Virus record (IMG/VR): IMGVR_UViG_3300028595_000007
Span: 1-36,206 of that record
Length of the DNA: 36,206 nucleotides
Direction: 5' to 3' (one strand)
DNA from: a virus
Shown here: in pieces, positions 9,431 to 36,206 of the stretch
Numbering within the stretch: the first letter of the stretch is position 1
Layout of the letters: every line of letters begins with the position of its first letter
Notes under the pieces: model-generated
The model's input: only the letters and a program-made list of their open reading frames with translations
The model's database searches: none
What the model was told of the DNA's origin: nothing
Program-made: the position numbers and the translations under genes

Positions 9431-9452
9431 ATTTAAAATAAAAATCATCTAT

Positions 9453-9481
9453 ATATTATCACTAGAAAAAATAAAAGTCAA
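9453..9481 (-). promoter_or_regulatory. Leftward early promoter (sigma70-type with extended -10)
   Basis: The minus strand reads TTGACTTTTATTTTTTCTAGTGATAATAT: a TTGACT -35, a 17-nt spacer, a TGn extended element and a TAATAT -10. Confidence 0.6.
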
Positions 9482-9510
9482 TACTTTTTTTTACATTAAT
9501 TATTTTATTA

Positions 9511-9549
9511 AAATCTTACCGGTATCTTACCGGTAAGAATGTAAGATTT
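9511..9549. promoter_or_regulatory. Operator-like palindrome/direct-repeat cluster between the divergent promoters
   Basis: AAATCTTACCGGTATCTTACCGGTAAGAATGTAAGATTT. TCTTACCGGTA occurs twice in tandem (9514..9524 and 9525..9535). CTTACCGGTAAG (9526..9537) is a perfect palindrome. The outer arms AAATCTTAC / GTAAGATTT are inverted. Confidence 0.5.
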
Positions 9550-9578
9550 ATTTAACATAAAAAAAAGTAAAAAAACAT

Positions 9579-9608
9579 TTGACTTTTATTGGTGAGGTGT
9601 GATTAAAT
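9579..9608 (+). promoter_or_regulatory. Rightward promoter driving the small structured RNA
   Basis: TTGACTTTTATTGGTGAGGTGTGATTAAAT: -35 TTGACT, TGa extended element, -10 TTAAAT (18-nt spacer). It shares the 11-mer TTGACTTTTAT with two other promoters in this region. Confidence 0.55.
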
Positions 9609-9614
9609 TTTAAT

Positions 9615-9720
9615 AAGCATAAAGATAAAAAGATTGAGTCTTCTACTGGGGATGAGATCATTACTGAGAAAATAGTAATAATCTTTATGCCCGATCTTAT
9701 CTCCAGTAGAGGGCTTTTTT
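9615..9720 (+). ncRNA. Candidate ~105-nt structured small RNA ending in an intrinsic terminator
   Basis: A 23-bp helix pairs 9637..9659 with 9693..9715 (4 G-U pairs) and is followed by a T-run to 9720. A 10-bp helix pairs 9617..9626 (gcataaagat) with 9681..9690 (atctttatgc) and is interleaved with the first. An apical hairpin attact/agtaat lies at 9660..9679. No plausible ORF. The 5' end is inferred from the promoter. Confidence 0.5.
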
Positions 9721-9822
9721 ACATTTTACAAACAAATAGTCTTAAAATAATTTTTAATACCTTTGTCTGTAAAAGACACGTTAGGAGGAGATTATACTTC
9801 TCGATGACAAGTGTAATAACAA

Positions 9823-9849
9823 ATACTCACTCCACTGCTATATAAAAAG
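9823..9849 (+). repeat. Degenerate third copy of the ATACTCACT module
   Basis: ATACTCACTccactgcTATATAAAAAG shares ATACTCACT and TATAAAAG with the 9904..9931 copy. Confidence 0.3.
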
Positions 9850-9898
9850 CGACTATGACGTTACAATAGTTGATAGCAGCCACCAGTCATCAGCGATA

Positions 9899-9921
9899 TA
9901 CGGATACTCACTAAAGAGAGA
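9899..9921 (+). promoter_or_regulatory. T3/T7-class single-subunit RNAP promoter-like module A
   Basis: tatacggATACTCACTAAAGAGAGA. The 15-mer CTCACTAAAGAGAGA (9907..9921) differs at one position from the T3 promoter core CTCACTAAAGGGAGA (T7 has CTCACTATAGGGAGA). The implied +1 is G9916. Confidence 0.4.
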
Positions 9922-10099
9922 TGTATAAAAGTTAATATTAACTCTGATCCTTAACAATTATTCTTACAACTTGCCAGAGAACTAAAAACTCTGATTGCCA
10001 ACAGTAAGAGCATAAAAAATAGGCTAAATCGCATAGTCAGTTTAAGTGTACGTTAATTTTAAAAAAATGTGTGGAAATCACAAGCCCACCACTCTGCGA

Positions 10100-10122
10100 T
10101 AGCCGTATTCTTTAAAGAGAGA
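10100..10122 (+). promoter_or_regulatory. T3/T7-class promoter-like module B (paralogue of module A)
   Basis: tagccgtaTTCTTTAAAGAGAGA shares TAAAGAGAGAT and about 50 nt of flanking similarity with module A (GCCACCAG..CAGCGATA versus GCCCACCAC..TGCGATA). The implied +1 is G10117, 201 nt after A. Confidence 0.3.
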
Positions 10123-10235
10123 TATTATACACCATGATTAAATATGTATTTTTATTCTATGTTTATACTTAATTAAAACTTATTAATTAAATACAATATG
10201 GAATAAAAAAACTTTAATTTTAAGTAATTTATCTA

Positions 10236-10264
10236 TTGACTTATTATTTTGTATATGATAGCAT
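10236..10264 (+). promoter_or_regulatory. Promoter of the XRE gene / rightward operon
   Basis: TTGACTTATTATTTTGTATATGATAGCAT: -35 TTGACT, 17-nt spacer, TGa extended element, -10 TAGCAT. Confidence 0.55.
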
Positions 10265-10281
10265 ATAAGTGAATCCGATAT

Positions 10282-10309
10282 GTGGGAGGTTCAGGGGGGT
10301 TCCTCCCAC
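10282..10309 (+). promoter_or_regulatory. GC-rich 5'-UTR hairpin upstream of the XRE gene
   Basis: GTGGGAGG (10282..10289) pairs with CCTCCCAC (10302..10309) around the loop ttcaggggggtt. It is conspicuous in an AT-rich spacer. Confidence 0.45.
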
Positions 10310-10326
10310 TTACCTTTTAAATCAAT

Positions 10327-10614
10327 ATGAATCTAACAGAAAAAAGAAAGACATTCGGAGAGCGTTTGAATCTTCTAAGAAGATCTAAAAACATCTCTAA
10401 AGATAAATTAATACAAGATTTAAATGCTCTTTTAATAGAAGAATATCAAGAAAATTACATTAGACCTCATATAATAACTAGAAATGAATATGATAGATAT
10501 GAGAATGGTGAATTATTACCAAATCAAGAGAATCTTATGAATATATGTAAGATATTAAAGAAACCTTTAGATTGGTTTTTCTCACCAATGGTAAAGACTA
10601 AAAAAATGTTTTAA
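10327..10614 (+). CDS. XRE-family helix-turn-helix transcriptional regulator (Cro/CI-like)
   Basis: 95 aa. FGERLNLLRRSKNISKDKLIQDLN fits the XRE HTH. It is the first gene right of the divergent control region. Confidence 0.65.
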   Translation: MNLTEKRKTFGERLNLLRRSKNISKDKLIQDLNALLIEEYQENYIRPHIITRNEYDRYENGELLPNQENLMNICKILKKPLDWFFSPMVKTKKMF

Positions 10615-10621
10615 TAATAAT

Positions 10622-10756
10622 ATGAAATATATATCAATAATCTCATTTATGATTATTATATGTTTAATAATATCATACTCTACAGATATTGATTTATATG
10701 TAATATTACAGTTAGCAGTTTTCTTTTATATTATGGGATTTGTTTTTTCAAATTGA
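10622..10756 (+). CDS. Possible 44-aa hydrophobic mini-protein
   Basis: Hand translation: MKYISIISFMIIICLIISYSTDIDLYVILQLAVFFYIMGFVFSN. ATG lies 5 nt after the XRE stop. Its TGA lies inside the next -35 box. Confidence 0.35.
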   Translation: MKYISIISFMIIICLIISYSTDIDLYVILQLAVFFYIMGFVFSN

Positions 10757-10781
10757 CTTTTATATTTTTATTTGATATGCT
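10753..10781 (+). promoter_or_regulatory. Promoter upstream of the uORF / T5orf172 gene
   Basis: TTGACTTTTATATTTTTATTTGATATGCT: -35 TTGACT, 17-nt spacer, TGa extended element, -10 TATGCT. Confidence 0.55.
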
Positions 10782-11563: not shown

Positions 11564-12289
11564 ATGAAAAAACAAACAATAATGTTATGGCAAGATACAT
11601 TAGTGTCTATACCAGAAATGAAAGATGAAGAAGCTGGAAAAATATTTAAAGCTATTATTCAATATGACAAGACTGGAAAATATAAATTAGATGATAGATT
11701 TTTAAATCTTTTGTTTTTACCAATCAAAGAGCAGATAGATAAAGACAAAGAGAAATACGAAAAAATATTAAAAAGAAATAGCATAAATGGTGCTAAAGGA
11801 GGTAGACCTAATAAAGAAAACCCAGATAAACCCAAAAAACCCAGTGGGTTATTTAAAAACCCAGATAAACCCAAAGAAACCCAAAAAAGCCCTATACCTA
11901 TACCTATTCCTATACCAACTCCAAATCCTATTCCTATTCAAAAAAAAGATATTACTAACGTAATACAACCTCCGGTTGAAATTCCTATAAAAGAAAAAAA
12001 AGAATATGGCAATAAAGATATAAACTCCATGCTAGCAAGTTTATATAAAGCTATAGATATTGATTCCTTTAAAGAATCAAGAAAACTAGAGAGACAATAT
12101 GCTATGCACATGGTTAATTTAGGAAAGAAGATAGGTAGAGAAAAATTCCTCGAGCGACTTCATGGAATACTTGAAGATGATTTTAAAGTTAAGAATTGCA
12201 ATTCAATTAAATATCTCTATGGTCAAATGAAGTCATTTATTGGAAATCCTAAAGTTGAGAAAAAACAAATGGGAGTAATTGTTCGTTAA
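11564..12289 (+). CDS. Replication-module protein (DnaD/replisome-organiser-like N-terminal domain, Pro-rich linker)
   Basis: The N-terminus WQDTLVSIPEMKDEEAGKIFKAIIQYDKTG...KYEKILKRNSINGAKGGRP resembles a domain common in phage replication regions (recalled, unverified). The linker reads NPDKPKKPSGLFKNPDKPKETQKSPIPIPIPIPTPNPIPI. Confidence 0.4.
   Translation: MKKQTIMLWQDTLVSIPEMKDEEAGKIFKAIIQYDKTGKYKLDDRFLNLLFLPIKEQIDKDKEKYEKILKRNSINGAKGGRPNKENPDKPKKPSGLFKNPDKPKETQKSPIPIPIPIPTPNPIPIQKKDITNVIQPPVEIPIKEKKEYGNKDINSMLASLYKAIDIDSFKESRKLERQYAMHMVNLGKKIGREKFLERLHGILEDDFKVKNCNSIKYLYGQMKSFIGNPKVEKKQMGVIVR
11817..11883. repeat. Iteron-like array of six AACCCA motifs (candidate in-gene origin)
   Basis: AACCCA occurs at 11819, 11829, 11838, 11858, 11868 and 11878 (spacings 10, 9, 20, 10, 10 nt). 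AAAACCCAGATAAACCCAAA is repeated twice. AACCCAGTGGGTT (11838..11850) is palindromic. Confidence 0.4.
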
Positions 12290-12310: not shown

Positions 12311-14524
12311 ATGAAATATAATGATTTTTTAAAGAAAAAAGTTTCACAAAATCATGAATATGGTTTTGATATTTCTATTGATAAATTAAATAATAAATTA
12401 TTTGATTTTCAAAAACAAATAGTACAATGGGGGCTAAAGAAAGGTAAAGCTGCTATCTTTGCAGATTGTGGGCTTGGTAAAACAGCCATGCAATTAGAAT
12501 GGGCAAATCAAGTAACAGAAAAAACAGGAAAACCAGTTTTAATACTTGCGCCTTTATCTGTAAGTCAACAAACAATTAATGAAGGTAAAAAATTTAATAT
12601 TCATGTTTCATTATTGCATGATAATATTGAATTAGATTATGCACATAAAGGGATATATATTATCAATTATGAGAAATTACATAAATTTAAAACTAATATT
12701 TTTTCAGGTATAGTTCTTGATGAAAGTTCAATACTTAAATCATTTATGGGAAAAGTAAGAACTGAAATTATATATAGATTTAAAAATACTCCTTATAAAT
12801 TAGCATGTACAGCAACACCAAGCCCAAATGATTTTACAGAAATAGGTAATCATGCAGAATTTCTAAATGTGTGTTCTATGCAAGAAATGCTTAGTATGTA
12901 TTTTATTAATGATTGCATGGGCAGTAAAGGTAATGGGATAGGATGGAGATTAAAAGGTCATGCAGAAGATAATTTCTTTCAATTCATAGGCTCATGGGCA
13001 GTAATGATAAAAACACCAAAGGATCTTGGATTTGATGACAAAGGTTATATATTACCTAAATTAAATATTAAAAATGAAATTCTTAAATTAAATAATAAAT
13101 CTAATGATAATCTTTTTCACATGCCAGCACAAACTTTAACAGAAAGAAGGGAATCAAGAAAAAATAGCTTAGAAGAAAGAGTAAATAAAGCATTTGAAAT
13201 ATCAAAAAATAGTGATGAACAATTTATTATTTGGTGTGATTTTAATAACGAACAAGATGAATTAGAAAATAAATTTAAAGATGAGTGTGTTTCTATTTAT
13301 GGTAGTTTAAAGCCAGAAGAAAAAGTCAAAAGAATGGATTTATGGCTAAAAGGAAAAAAAAGAATACTTATTACTAAGCCGTCAATAGCTGGATTTGGAA
13401 TAAATATGCAGAATTGCCATAATATGATATTTTGCGGACTTTCAGATTCTTATGAGCAGTTTTATCAAGCAACAAGAAGGTGCTGGCGTTTTGGTCAAGA
13501 TAAAGATGTAAATGTTTATATAATTATATCTGAAAAAGAAATAACAATTTTAGAAAACATAAAAAGAAAAGAATCAGATTTTAATAAAATGTCTAATTCA
13601 GTTGTAAATAATGTTTCAAAATATTTTTTTAATTTTAATTTTAAAATGAAATATAATAAAAAAGAAATCACAGGCGAAAATTATACTGCTAAACTTGGTG
13701 ATTGTGTAGAATTAATAAAAGATCAGCCAGATGAAAGTATTGATTATTCAGTATTTAGCCCTCCTTTTTCATCACTTTATACTTATTCAAATTCTGAAAG
13801 GGATATGGGAAATTGTAAAAATGATGATGAGTTTTATAAGCATTTTTTATTTTTAAGTAAAGAATTATTTAGAGTAATAAAACAAGGAAGGCTATTAAGT
13901 TTTCATTGTATGAATTTACCGACAAGTAAATCTAGAGATGGTTTTATTGGTATTAAAGATTTTAGAGGCGATTTAATAAAAATATTTCAAGACGCTGGTT
14001 TTATATTTCATAGTGAAGTTTGCATTTGGAAAGATCCAGTTGTGGCAATGCAAAGAACAAAAGCATTAGGGCTATTGCATAAGCAAATAAAAAAAGATAG
14101 CTCAATGAGTAGGCAGGGAATTGCTGATTATGTAGTTACTATGAGAAAACCTGGAGAAAATAAAAATCCTATTTCTCATACAGCCGAACAATTTCCAGTT
14201 GATGAATGGCAAAAAATTGCTAGTCCAGTTTGGACTGATATAAATCAATCAAACACTTTACAAAAACAAAGTGCAAGGGAAGATAAAGACGAAAAACATA
14301 TATGCCCTTTACAACTTGATGTAATAGAAAGATGTTTATATCTATGGACAAATCCTGATGATTTAGTTTTATCGCCTTTTATGGGCATAGGATCAGAAGG
14401 ATACTGCAGCTTAAAACTTGGTAGAAAATTTATAGGTTTTGAACTTAAAGAAAGTTATTTTAATCAAGCAGTAAATAACTTAAATAATGCAAATAATTTA
14501 AAAAAACAAATTACTTTATTTTAA
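12311..14524 (+). CDS. SNF2-family helicase fused to a beta-class N6A/N4C DNA methyltransferase
   Basis: The N-terminal half carries CGLGKT (motif I), VLDESS (II), CTATPSPND (III) and GFGINMQ...QATRRCWRFGQ (V/VI). The C-terminal half carries FSPPF (MTase motif IV) followed later by LSPFMGIGSEG...GRKFIGFELKESY (motif I). That order is typical of the N6_N4 MTase family. Confidence 0.8.
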   Translation: MKYNDFLKKKVSQNHEYGFDISIDKLNNKLFDFQKQIVQWGLKKGKAAIFADCGLGKTAMQLEWANQVTEKTGKPVLILAPLSVSQQTINEGKKFNIHVSLLHDNIELDYAHKGIYIINYEKLHKFKTNIFSGIVLDESSILKSFMGKVRTEIIYRFKNTPYKLACTATPSPNDFTEIGNHAEFLNVCSMQEMLSMYFINDCMGSKGNGIGWRLKGHAEDNFFQFIGSWAVMIKTPKDLGFDDKGYILPKLNIKNEILKLNNKSNDNLFHMPAQTLTERRESRKNSLEERVNKAFEISKNSDEQFIIWCDFNNEQDELENKFKDECVSIYGSLKPEEKVKRMDLWLKGKKRILITKPSIAGFGINMQNCHNMIFCGLSDSYEQFYQATRRCWRFGQDKDVNVYIIISEKEITILENIKRKESDFNKMSNSVVNNVSKYFFNFNFKMKYNKKEITGENYTAKLGDCVELIKDQPDESIDYSVFSPPFSSLYTYSNSERDMGNCKNDDEFYKHFLFLSKELFRVIKQGRLLSFHCMNLPTSKSRDGFIGIKDFRGDLIKIFQDAGFIFHSEVCIWKDPVVAMQRTKALGLLHKQIKKDSSMSRQGIADYVVTMRKPGENKNPISHTAEQFPVDEWQKIASPVWTDINQSNTLQKQSAREDKDEKHICPLQLDVIERCLYLWTNPDDLVLSPFMGIGSEGYCSLKLGRKFIGFELKESYFNQAVNNLNNANNLKKQITLF

Positions 14525-15988: not shown

Positions 15989-16116
15989 TGGTTCTCTAAG
16001 CTTACAAGCCATTAATGCAGTTTAAGTAAAAAAGCAAAAAATATATATTTCATTTTGTATAAAAAAAAGTTTGTATCAGCAAGTCAGTAGAATAAGAGCT
16101 AAGTTGTAAGATTCTA

Positions 16117-16146
16117 TTGACAAAAAACATTTACTTATATTATTAT
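16117..16146 (+). promoter_or_regulatory. Sigma70-type promoter immediately upstream of ATG 16154
   Basis: TTGACA (16117..16122), an 18-nt spacer and TATTAT (16141..16146). The ATG lies 8 nt after the -10, which suggests a leaderless or near-leaderless mRNA. Confidence 0.4.
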
Positions 16147-16153
16147 TAAGACA

Positions 16154-16372
16154 ATGAAAAAAGAAAATTATTGTGCATTAACTAGGGAAGAATGGGTTAA
16201 AGACCTTGTTCAGCATACAAGAGAAATAAGAAAACTAGAGAAGAAATTAAGTTCAAAAAATAGACCTTATGACATCATAGAAGATCTAATGATACTCAAG
16301 ATGGAAAAAGCAGATCTATTTATTAATGGTTACTTGCAACATGTAGAAAAAGCAAACGAAAGAGAAATTTAA
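16154..16372 (+). CDS. Hypothetical protein (72 aa)
   Basis: Track ORF. Charged and helical-looking. Confidence 0.55.
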   Translation: MKKENYCALTREEWVKDLVQHTREIRKLEKKLSSKNRPYDIIEDLMILKMEKADLFINGYLQHVEKANEREI

Positions 16373-16378
16373 TTAAAA

Positions 16379-16498
16379 ATGAAACTAAAAGAATGCCCTA
16401 AATGCAAAGGCAAAGAATTCAAACTTAAAATAACAGAAGTAGGCGATGCTTATACTTGTAATAAATGTAATTATCTTTTTGTAGAAAACAATGACTAA
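16379..16498 (+). CDS. 39-aa Zn-ribbon mini-protein
   Basis: Hand translation: MKLKECPKCKGKEFKLKITEVGDAYTCNKCNYLFVENND (CxxC...CxxC). Below the track cut-off. Confidence 0.5.
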   Translation: MKLKECPKCKGKEFKLKITEVGDAYTCNKCNYLFVENND

Positions 16499-16649
16499 AA
16501 AAGAAGACAATACAACTAAGGCAATAAAAGAAATCGAAGCAGTACTGGCAAAGTACAATGTAGCCTTTGAAGTAAAAACTGTGCCAAGAATAAACGTAGT
16601 ACAAAAGCCAGAAGTCCCTAAGCAAAAAACTATTAAAAAAAATAAATGA
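16491..16649 (+). CDS. 52-aa hypothetical mini-protein
   Basis: Hand translation: MTKKEDNTTKAIKEIEAVLAKYNVAFEVKTVPRINVVQKPEVPKQKTIKKNK. It overlaps both neighbours (8 nt and ATGA). Confidence 0.45.
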   Translation: MTKKEDNTTKAIKEIEAVLAKYNVAFEVKTVPRINVVQKPEVPKQKTIKKNK

Positions 16650-16792
16650 AAGCAACTTGCATACAATGCAGCAGACAAATGAAAAAGAAGATAAGAAAAG
16701 ATCTTTACATTTGCCTACAAGAAGACTGCCCAAACTTCTGTATAGCTGCTATAAGTGAAGAAGATTACGATAAAATAAAGAAAGCTAAATAA
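16646..16792 (+). CDS. 48-aa Cys-rich (Zn-ribbon-like) mini-protein
   Basis: Hand translation: MKATCIQCSRQMKKKIRKDLYICLQEDCPNFCIAAISEEDYDKIKKAK. Confidence 0.45.
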   Translation: MKATCIQCSRQMKKKIRKDLYICLQEDCPNFCIAAISEEDYDKIKKAK

Positions 16793-16805
16793 TTTTTAAA
16801 CTAAC

Positions 16806-34785: not shown

Positions 34786-34809
34786 TAGAAAATAATATTT
34801 TAAATAATT

Positions 34810-36206
34810 ATGGCTACTCAATTTTTTACAAGAGAAAAAGGCAGAACAACTTTAATAGATCCACTTACTGGTGAAACTAGAACTTTTGCTGAAAGTGAAG
34901 AAACTTATAATAAGCTTCAAGATACACGCAGAAGAAAAGCTCAAGCCAAGCTTAGAGGTGCATTAACTCAAGTTGGAATTAAGCCGACTATAGATGTAAT
35001 GAAAGAATTACAAGGTATTGAAGATGAGCCAACTCAATCTCAAATAGATAAAACTTTAGATGCTTATACTAAAGATCAAAAAATAACATCAGGGCAAGCT
35101 AGATCTGGTATTCAAAGAGCATTAGAAGGTAAACCACTAGGACAAACATTGTCATCAGGAGTGCAAAAGTATTTATCAACACCAAGCCCTAAAAGTTCAG
35201 TTGAAAAGAAAAAGACAACTGCTGATAAACTAAGAGAAAAAGCTACAGGAATATCAACAGCTTTTGATATAACTAAATTCCAGAAAGAAGATCCAGAAAC
35301 AGGCGAGACTACTACCGACCTACAATCAGCTTTAAATTCAGCTTTAAATTTACTTAAAGGCAAACAAAAAACAGAAGAAGATATATTAATGTTAGAAAGT
35401 ATGGCAAGCACTGAAGAAGCTAGAGAAAAAACAGATGAGGAGCTTAGAAGAGAGTTTTTTGGTAGTGATGAAGCTAAGGCTATTGAAGAAAAAAGAAGCC
35501 TCTTAGAAGAAGAATACAAAGCAGCTAGAGAAACACAAAGAGTAATAAATAACGAGAGAATGTCACGTGAGAAAGATAAAGCAAGAAGACAGGCTCAATT
35601 AGTAAGAGCTAGAGTTGGGGGGTTAGAAGGAGATATATCAAACGTTGCTTTTGCTGAAGGAGTAGTAGCAGAAGGTGCAGATTATCTAAGAAGATTAGAA
35701 AGAGATCAAAATATGAGTTTAAATTCTATGGAAAGAACTTATAAAGAAGAAAAGTTCAATCTTGATGAAGCAGAAAGAAGATCAGTTGAAAATTATATTA
35801 AGGAAAGAAGAGCTGAAATTGGCGAGAAAAAAGATGATGCGATTAAATATATTAATACTCTTATTAGTAGTAAAGCTATAGATAATGTCTCAGATCAAGC
35901 ATTAAGAGAACTTGAAAAACAAGCAGGAATGCCTAGCGGAATAGTTTTAGCTATGAAAGAACAAGCCAAACAAGTGGAAGAAGCTCAAAAAGAAGCTCAA
36001 AAAATGAAAGATGCTACTAGTATTCTTAATTTACAAAAAGCACAAATAGAGCTTCAAAAACTACAAAAAGAAGCTGAAAAAGGAGATACACCAGAAATAA
36101 CAGCAGCACAAAGTGATTTCTTGTTTTATTCACAGCTTAAAAAGACTAACCCAGAAATGGCAGAGAAATTTGCACAACAAAGAGGATTTACAACAGAAGA
36201 AATTGA
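34810..36206 (+). CDS. 5' part of a wrap-around gene: large K/E-rich coiled-coil virion/ejection-type protein (about 952 aa in total, continues at 128..1589)
   Basis: ATG at 34810 follows the TGA of the previous gene. Hand translation (MATQFFTREKGRTTLIDPLTGE...) reaches the window end with no stop. It is absent from the ORF track only because no stop lies inside the window. The reading phase matches track ORF 42..1589 once the 36079-nt offset is removed. The product call is positional and compositional only. Confidence 0.75.
   Translation, partial: MATQFFTREKGRTTLIDPLTGETRTFAESEETYNKLQDTRRRKAQAKLRGALTQVGIKPTIDVMKELQGIEDEPTQSQIDKTLDAYTKDQKITSGQARSGIQRALEGKPLGQTLSSGVQKYLSTPSPKSSVEKKKTTADKLREKATGISTAFDITKFQKEDPETGETTTDLQSALNSALNLLKGKQKTEEDILMLESMASTEEAREKTDEELRREFFGSDEAKAIEEKRSLLEEEYKAARETQRVINNERMSREKDKARRQAQLVRARVGGLEGDISNVAFAEGVVAEGADYLRRLERDQNMSLNSMERTYKEEKFNLDEAERRSVENYIKERRAEIGEKKDDAIKYINTLISSKAIDNVSDQALRELEKQAGMPSGIVLAMKEQAKQVEEAQKEAQKMKDATSILNLQKAQIELQKLQKEAEKGDTPEITAAQSDFLFYSQLKKTNPEMAEKFAQQRGFTTEEI
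36080..36206. repeat. Terminal overlap, copy 2 (identical to 1..127)
   Basis: Same comparison as copy 1. It lies inside an open reading frame that continues in phase at position 128. Confidence 0.95.

Follow-up and report, generated by a model that had tools for sequence, protein, structure and literature searches.

A 16-nucleotide identity to a T7 promoter in the early control spacer of a 36-kb phage: probably a chance look-alike

A short sequence resembling the promoters of T7-class, single-subunit RNA polymerases, here called M1, lies in a non-coding spacer of a phage genome, and it is probably a chance look-alike in ordinary spacer DNA of the early control region. The DNA analysed, referred to below as the window, is the whole stretch of 36,206 nucleotides; it represents a closed phage genome of 36 kb with a 127-nt terminal repeat and 31.7% G+C. 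A previous sequence-only reading of the window had proposed that the look-alike may serve transcriptional parasitism, sensing of a co-infecting phage or a decoy, and had kept chance resemblance as a fallback. This fallback is the reading that fits the evidence presented here. The spacer, the elements under discussion and the neighbouring genes are as follows.

9449-10326, no strand: non-coding spacer of 878 nt between divergent early operons
9823-9831, plus strand: M0, the 9-mer ATACTCACT common to M1, 81 nt upstream of M1
9899-9921, plus strand: M1, the T7-class promoter look-alike, TACGGATACTCACTAAAGAGAGA, with its nominal +1 at G9916
10100-10122, plus strand: M2, a partial repeat of M1, TAGCCGTATTCTTTAAAGAGAGA, with TAAAGAGAGAT in common with M1
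10327-10614, plus strand: gene for an XRE-family helix-turn-helix regulator, the first gene downstream of the look-alikes
11564-12289: gene for a DUF6291 protein

To the left of the spacer lies a block of small genes, the last one ending at 9448. The rightward block continues after the XRE gene with a T5orf172/MUG113 gene, a DUF6291/Lin1244_N-like gene and a gene encoding an SNF2 helicase-methylase fusion, the replication genes starting about 1.3 kb downstream of the repeats. Between 9720 and 10240, stop codons of mixed type crowd all six frames (code 11) and, because they are of mixed type, recoding of a single stop codon rescues no gene in this interval. No tRNA was found in the spacer. A known structured RNA family was also rejected as an identity for it, since over the window every Rfam family stays below its gathering score, and M0 to M2 are free of matches at E values up to 10.

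Several features of the wider genome were recorded along the way. The helicase fusion (12311-14524, plus strand) joins an SNF2-type helicase to an N6/N4 DNA methylase in one protein of 737 amino acids; its family is very large, at least 8000 matches at E <= 1e-20 being found in phages and prophages of many phyla. None of the 36 gene starts in the whole window is preceded by a Shine-Dalgarno sequence; A/T-rich leaders such as ttttttaaaataaaATG precede them, and the host probably initiates translation without Shine-Dalgarno pairing. Stop codon usage over the window is 37 TAA, 4 TGA and 1 TAG. The lack of Shine-Dalgarno sites together with the 32% G+C of the phage argues that the host is not an enterobacterium. 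Two other large stretches are poor in ORFs, with no convincing one in either: 34786-36206 (about 1.4 kb) and 15989-16805 (817 nt), the latter lying upstream of the terminase region, where it could hold the packaging site.

The resemblance of M1 to a T7-group promoter is better than had been claimed. The 15-mer CTCACTAAAGAGAGA at 9907-9921 (plus strand), described in the sequence-only reading as one mismatch away from the T3 core, indeed has a single mismatch, and in a scan of both strands it is the sole site in the window within three mismatches of that core. Moreover, from 9906 to 9921 M1 is identical to the T7 class II promoter phi4c at 16 of 16 positions, covering -10 to +6 (ACTCACTAAAGAGAGA). 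The complete phi4c promoter (V01146, +1 = 12671) reads CAATCCGACTCACTAAAGAGAGA; 17 of the 23 positions are alike, and M1 departs from it at -17 and at -15 to -11. In this last interval M1 carries C, G, G, A and T, and at none of these positions does one of the 17 natural T7 promoters share the base of M1. Compared with the T3 promoter consensus, which we take to be AATTAACCCTCACTAAAGGGAGA, M1 agrees at 14 of 15 positions in the -9 to +6 core and at 16 of 23 overall; at -11 and -10, positions read by the specificity loop, M1 has T and A whereas the consensus has C and C. M1 thus carries the initiation half of a T7-class promoter, namely CTC at -9 to -7, C at -5, the TAAA melting box at -4 to -1, where the class has TA(A/T)A, and the +1 G, and is oriented toward the early operon. 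Its upstream binding half, which should be A/T-rich from -17 to -13 and polymerase-specific from -12 to -10, fits neither T7 nor T3. The specificity loop of the polymerase reads -11 to -7, with N748 contacting -10 and -11; mutations in the CTC at -9 to -7 cut activity to less than 5% and position -5 is also critical (PMC5937735).

The site is also alone in its genome. While phi4c is one of 17 sites in T7, with the polymerase encoded in the same genome, M1 is a single site in 36 kb and no polymerase was found with it. T7-type systems use many promoter sites. The absence of a single-subunit RNA polymerase, already noted from the open reading frames, held on closer inspection: none of the ten large ORFs tested matched an RNA polymerase family in Pfam or PHROGs, and the 907-aa ORF, the only one of polymerase size, had no sequence match in the PDB. 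This ORF (1608-4331, plus strand) follows a tape-measure-like gene, and the whole protein is without Pfam, PHROG or PDB match. Its C-terminus contains two repeated domains of the form AKKYK(S/T)ADxF(I/V)xAQG.P..HGT..., which weakly resemble ART-PolyVal (E = 2.7e-6, below the cut-off) and PARP, and the protein may be an injected ADP-ribosyltransferase of polyvalent type.

A phage owning the cognate polymerase was searched for in public collections. Matches to TACTCACTAAAGNNAGA in IMG/VR and to the 18-mer ATACTCACTAAAGNGAGA in metagenomes were singletons only, and none of the matches listed for ATACTCACTAAAGG and ATACTCACTAAAGA in IMG/VR (at least 120 for each) was a contig with multiple promoter copies. 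The one two-copy locus, on the IMG/VR contig L380, was considered as a cognate promoter and rejected, as it is a 3.2-kb coding unit present twice in tandem; the unit encodes PDGYSLKKV, the codons of which agree with M1 over 16 nt by coincidence. Over positions 1-6565 this contig repeats in tandem its gene set of about 3.2 kb, the paired ORFs being about 90-100% alike, a pattern as expected for a concatemer or for a very small viral genome present in two copies that have diverged. The promoters of K1F were likewise rejected as relatives of M1, as K1F uses CTATCACTATAGG.

Only distant relatives were available for comparison. The window has no nucleotide match in the phage collection, no close relative in IMG/VR and no record with an exactly matching protein. 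Among contigs of sufficient length to display the neighbouring region, the closest helicase relative is 66% identical, and one that is 73% identical lies on a contig of only 2.4 kb. In the 77.6 kb of distant relatives that were fetched, neither the module nor a T3-like core was found, the neighbourhoods being different and not alignable. The helicase was also of no use for identifying the host, its matches in genomes and cultured phages being about 50% identical and spread across phyla. In one distant relative (contig L008) the equivalent large non-coding gap contains a tRNA-like gene at 6700-6770 (minus strand), which scores 52.7 bits in Rfam and to which ARAGORN gives a two-base anticodon (aa) and no amino-acid assignment.

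How often such a match arises by chance depends on what is counted. A site within one mismatch of the T3 15-mer occurred in 1 of 100 dinucleotide shuffles and in 0.5% of Markov-1 genomes, a composition-aware value close to the 3e-3 first estimated under uniform base composition; allowing any T7, T3, SP6 or K11 core raises the latter figure to 1.4%. Among random genomes of this composition, only about 0.07% are expected to contain an exact 16-mer of a natural T7 promoter, whichever of the 17 is taken, and this counts against the chance reading, as does the presence of ATACTCACT only twice in 36 kb, both copies in this spacer. On the other hand, a 23-mer match as good as the one observed (16/23) is reached in 76% of random genomes. 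Because the full 23-mer is no better than chance, the likeness of M1 is confined to the initiation half, -10 to +6. The 16-nt identity is rare taken alone, and it is unremarkable only once it is weighed against how many iconic motifs there are and in how many windows one could have been seen. That the word does arise by chance is evident from public data. In IMG/VR the 15-mer was found in 41 stretches, 15 of them the same phi4c site in T7-like genomes of about 39 kb and the other 26 unrelated occurrences in non-T7 contexts. The 18-mer ATACTCACTAAAGNGAGA gave 39 singleton matches in metagenomes, with flanks unlike the window and several in evident coding sequence.

The repeats around M1 add little promoter character. 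A paralogous copy had been described 201 nt downstream, and TAAAGAGAGAT is indeed repeated exactly at 9912 and 10113, 201 nt apart; however, the M2 core at 10108-10122, TTCTTTAAAGAGAGA, has four mismatches to the T3 core (-9, -6, -5 and +2), and M2 is not promoter-like because it has T at -9, -6 and -5. Of the two copies that had been called good, M1 alone is therefore promoter-like, M2 being altered at essential positions. The degenerate third copy, M0, has the 9-mer ATACTCACT in common with M1, at 9823 and 9904, and nothing more: it is followed by CCACTG, not AAAGAG, and the TAAAG start region is lost. The 50 nt of flanking similarity once ascribed to M1 and M2 was not confirmed by alignment. 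Their best local alignment is a gapped one of 43 nt with five gap positions and a score of 27, which 19 of 500 shuffles reached (P ~0.04). Within 9720-10140, an 11-mer repeated exactly has P ~0.06, and pairs of 9-mers are weakly enriched in number (P ~0.035). With such borderline P values, the relation between M1 and M2 is borderline and not a robust 50-nt paralogy. M2 contains a perfect 10-bp palindrome, TCTTTAAAGA, and both M1 and M2 show partial dyad symmetry. Two further readings were examined by eye and rejected: insertion of a mobile element with an 11-bp target duplication, as no terminal inverted repeats were seen at 9923 and 10112, and a host-type promoter overlapping M1, as neither strand offers an acceptable -10.

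What the spacer does contain is a clear family of sigma70-type, extended -10 promoters, TTGACTTTTAT...TGATAnnAT, of the form TTGAC(T/A)TTTAT...TGATAnnAT. Its six copies lie at 8540 (minus), 9481 (minus), 9579 (plus), 10236 (plus), 10753 (plus) and 15187 (plus), clustered round the divergent early region, and their sequence suggests that they would be used by the sigma70-type polymerase of the host. The promoters and other elements of the control region are listed below.

9453-9481, minus strand: leftward sigma70-type promoter, TTGACT...TGATAATAT
9579-9609, plus strand: rightward sigma70-type promoter, TTGACT...TGATTAAAT, ahead of the hairpin RNA
9637-9721, plus strand: near-perfect hairpin of about 80 nt followed by a T run (-40.4 kcal/mol, z = -6.4)
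10140-10235, no strand: A/T-rich tract of about 12-18% G+C, just downstream of M2
10236-10264, plus strand: sigma70-type, extended -10 promoter directly ahead of the XRE gene
10753-10781, plus strand: sigma70-type, extended -10 promoter ahead of the T5orf172, DUF6291 and helicase-methylase genes

The interval 9579-9721 (plus strand) forms a self-contained unit of promoter, hairpin and T run, a candidate terminator or attenuator, or a candidate small RNA of about 110 nt (approximately 9613-9721); its sole likeness in Rfam is to rli60, at E = 2, far below threshold. Between the divergent promoters at 9481 (minus) and 9579 (plus), the word ATCTTACCGGT is found twice in tandem and once inverted at 9513-9538, an arrangement unique in the genome, and 9525-9538 is a perfect 14-bp palindrome, TCTTACCGGTAAGA; this element looks like an operator or a bidirectional terminator. 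Just upstream of M1, a nested set of hairpins at 9775-9900 (plus strand) folds better than 200 of 200 shuffles (z = -2.7). Between promoter and start codon, the XRE 5' leader contains the G+C-rich hairpin GTGGGAGG...CCTCCCAC (10282-10309, plus strand), which may be an attenuator or stabiliser and whose energy is ordinary for its composition (z = -0.1). The lowest G+C of any 100 nt in the genome, 12%, is found at 10151, tied with two other windows of that size. The cumulative skew has its minima at 9434-9531 and follows gene orientation, and the gap contains no DnaA boxes and no DnaA-box cluster. A spacer for early control or for an origin would fit these features, which prove no role for M1 or M2.

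We propose that M1 would match the initiation half of a T7-group promoter by chance and be used by no single-subunit RNA polymerase, and that the rightward early genes would be transcribed by the sigma70-type polymerase of the host from 9579, 10236 and 10753. The similarity among M0, M1 and M2 would then be a short, borderline repeat, most simply the relic of a local duplication or a repeated word.

Other explanations attribute a function to the repeats themselves. M1, M2 and perhaps M0 could be binding sites of a phage DNA-binding protein, their promoter likeness being incidental, and we consider this unlikely. The protein would be the adjacent XRE regulator or a putative replisome organiser of the DUF6291/Lin1244_N type, acting at an iteron-plus-unwinding-element origin beside the A/T-rich tract or at an upstream set of operators. 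Their placement directly upstream of this tract with its tied genome minimum, at the strand switch and skew minimum and about 1.3 kb ahead of the replication genes, agrees with such a role, as do the dyad symmetry of both modules, the palindrome in M2 and the confinement of the exact words TAAAGAGAGAT and ATACTCACT to the region. Yet an iteron-type origin has three or more direct repeats at regular spacing, and the copies here number two or three, at irregular distances of 81 and 201 nt and with P values of about 0.04-0.06; the gap lacks a DnaA-box cluster, the skew minimum simply tracks gene orientation, and nothing comparable was found in the 77.6 kb of the distant relatives. Nor are the repeats placed like classical operators, because the nearest promoter is 115-330 nt away. 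It is rather improbable, too, that each repeat encodes the C-terminus of a small protein, the two coding sequences being paralogous, live or decayed, and in one frame (...AIYGYSLKRDV* at 9785-9928 and ...PYSLKRDIIHHD* ending at 10141), the T7-like word then being the codons TAC TCA CTA AAG AGA GAT. The three differences between the 18-mers TACTCACTAAAGAGAGAT and TATTCTTTAAAGAGAGAT would all be synonymous (Y, S and L) and the offsets of 81 and 201 nt are both multiples of 3, a consistency with a reading frame that hints at some past or present constraint; in addition, the ATG at 10067 is preceded by an A/T-rich leader of the kind usual for the genes of this phage, and of the three frames of 9785-9925 this one has the best codon score (-0.03 vs -0.75 and -1.31). 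That score nevertheless lies 2.7 sd below that of real genes (0.42 +/- 0.17; off-frames -1.06 +/- 0.44), the first frame has no ATG, GTG or TTG start, and a TAG cuts the second after 11 codons. An exhaustive HMMER search of 1.84 billion representatives with the 47-aa frame returned three spurious repetitive proteins only, back-translated scans of viral and metagenome contigs returned nothing, and tblastx found no paralogue or pseudogene in the genome or its relatives. As a protein-coding small ORF, neither frame therefore qualifies, the synonymous pattern between M1 and M2 being the only positive sign.

A role at the RNA level appears very improbable. The stretch would be part of a non-coding RNA, either read-through from 9579 or an antisense transcript from about 10083 (minus strand), in which M1 and M2 act, for example, as boxA-like antitermination elements ahead of hairpins. 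The strong promoter-hairpin-T-run unit just upstream, the nested hairpins of 9775-9900, which fold better than all 200 shuffles, and the second hairpin in the XRE leader are in keeping with this, and M2 agrees at 9 of 13 positions with what we take to be the rrn boxA of E. coli. However, this last likeness is at chance level in A/T-rich DNA, Rfam offers no match even at E = 10, the windows of M1 and M2 are unstructured (z = -0.7 and +0.7), and the whole 411-nt stretch has z = -1.4 on the plus strand and -0.8 on the minus strand. Finally, M1 could be a working orphan promoter, or a decoy, bound by the single-subunit RNA polymerase that a co-infecting T7-like phage supplies, so that a polymerase-less phage would fire its XRE/replication operon only on co-infection or would titrate the enzyme of a competitor. 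The cognate phage would be T7-like, would infect the same host and would so far have escaped sampling, its promoters reading ...GGATACTCACTAAAG. The identity with phi4c from -10 to +6, which includes all initiation elements and is rare by chance (0.07%), and the direction of M1 toward the early operon speak for this possibility, which we nonetheless hold to be extremely unlikely. M1 stands alone in the genome, neither M2 nor M0 is promoter-like, and the recognition positions -15 to -11 fit neither T7 nor T3; the sequence-only reading had taken the divergent upstream half as that of a polymerase with a different specificity, and an unknown enzyme of this kind would possibly account for it, but no phage with multiple copies of TACTCACTAAAG.. 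was found among the matches listed for IMG/VR and the metagenome collection. Enterobacterial phages are known to use the CTCACTAAAG core, K1F, the only further T7-group genome compared, uses a different one, and the host is not an enterobacterium as judged by Shine-Dalgarno sites and G+C. The operon is, moreover, already served by host-type promoters. Parasitism, sensing and a decoy sink, as originally suggested for M1, thus find no support, given the single site, the wrong recognition half, the absence of the module from the 77.6 kb of distant relatives, the lack of a cognate phage in the searches and the presence of host-type promoters.

If M1 did work, it would be the first natural case of a phage borrowing the private transcription machinery of another phage, and a new kind of phage-phage parasitism or sensing. 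With M1 read as a chance look-alike, the lesson is that 16/16 identity to a famous motif can arise by chance once in a genome, and that such an identity carries meaning only when backed by copy number, by the recognition half, by a cognate enzyme or by conservation. What the region really offers is an early-control spacer, ordinary yet neatly arranged, in which a clear family of host-type promoters is accompanied by a strong hairpin RNA unit. The non-coding ori regions of lactococcal phages are an example of spacers for early control or origins at divergent early operons. The present spacer, in which an origin function is putative, differs from such phage origins in its few, irregular and borderline repeats and in its lack of DnaA boxes. 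It resembles such phage spacers in forming a large gap at a point of divergent transcription, in carrying host-type promoters, hairpins and short direct repeats, and in having an A/T-rich tract that adjoins the replication genes.
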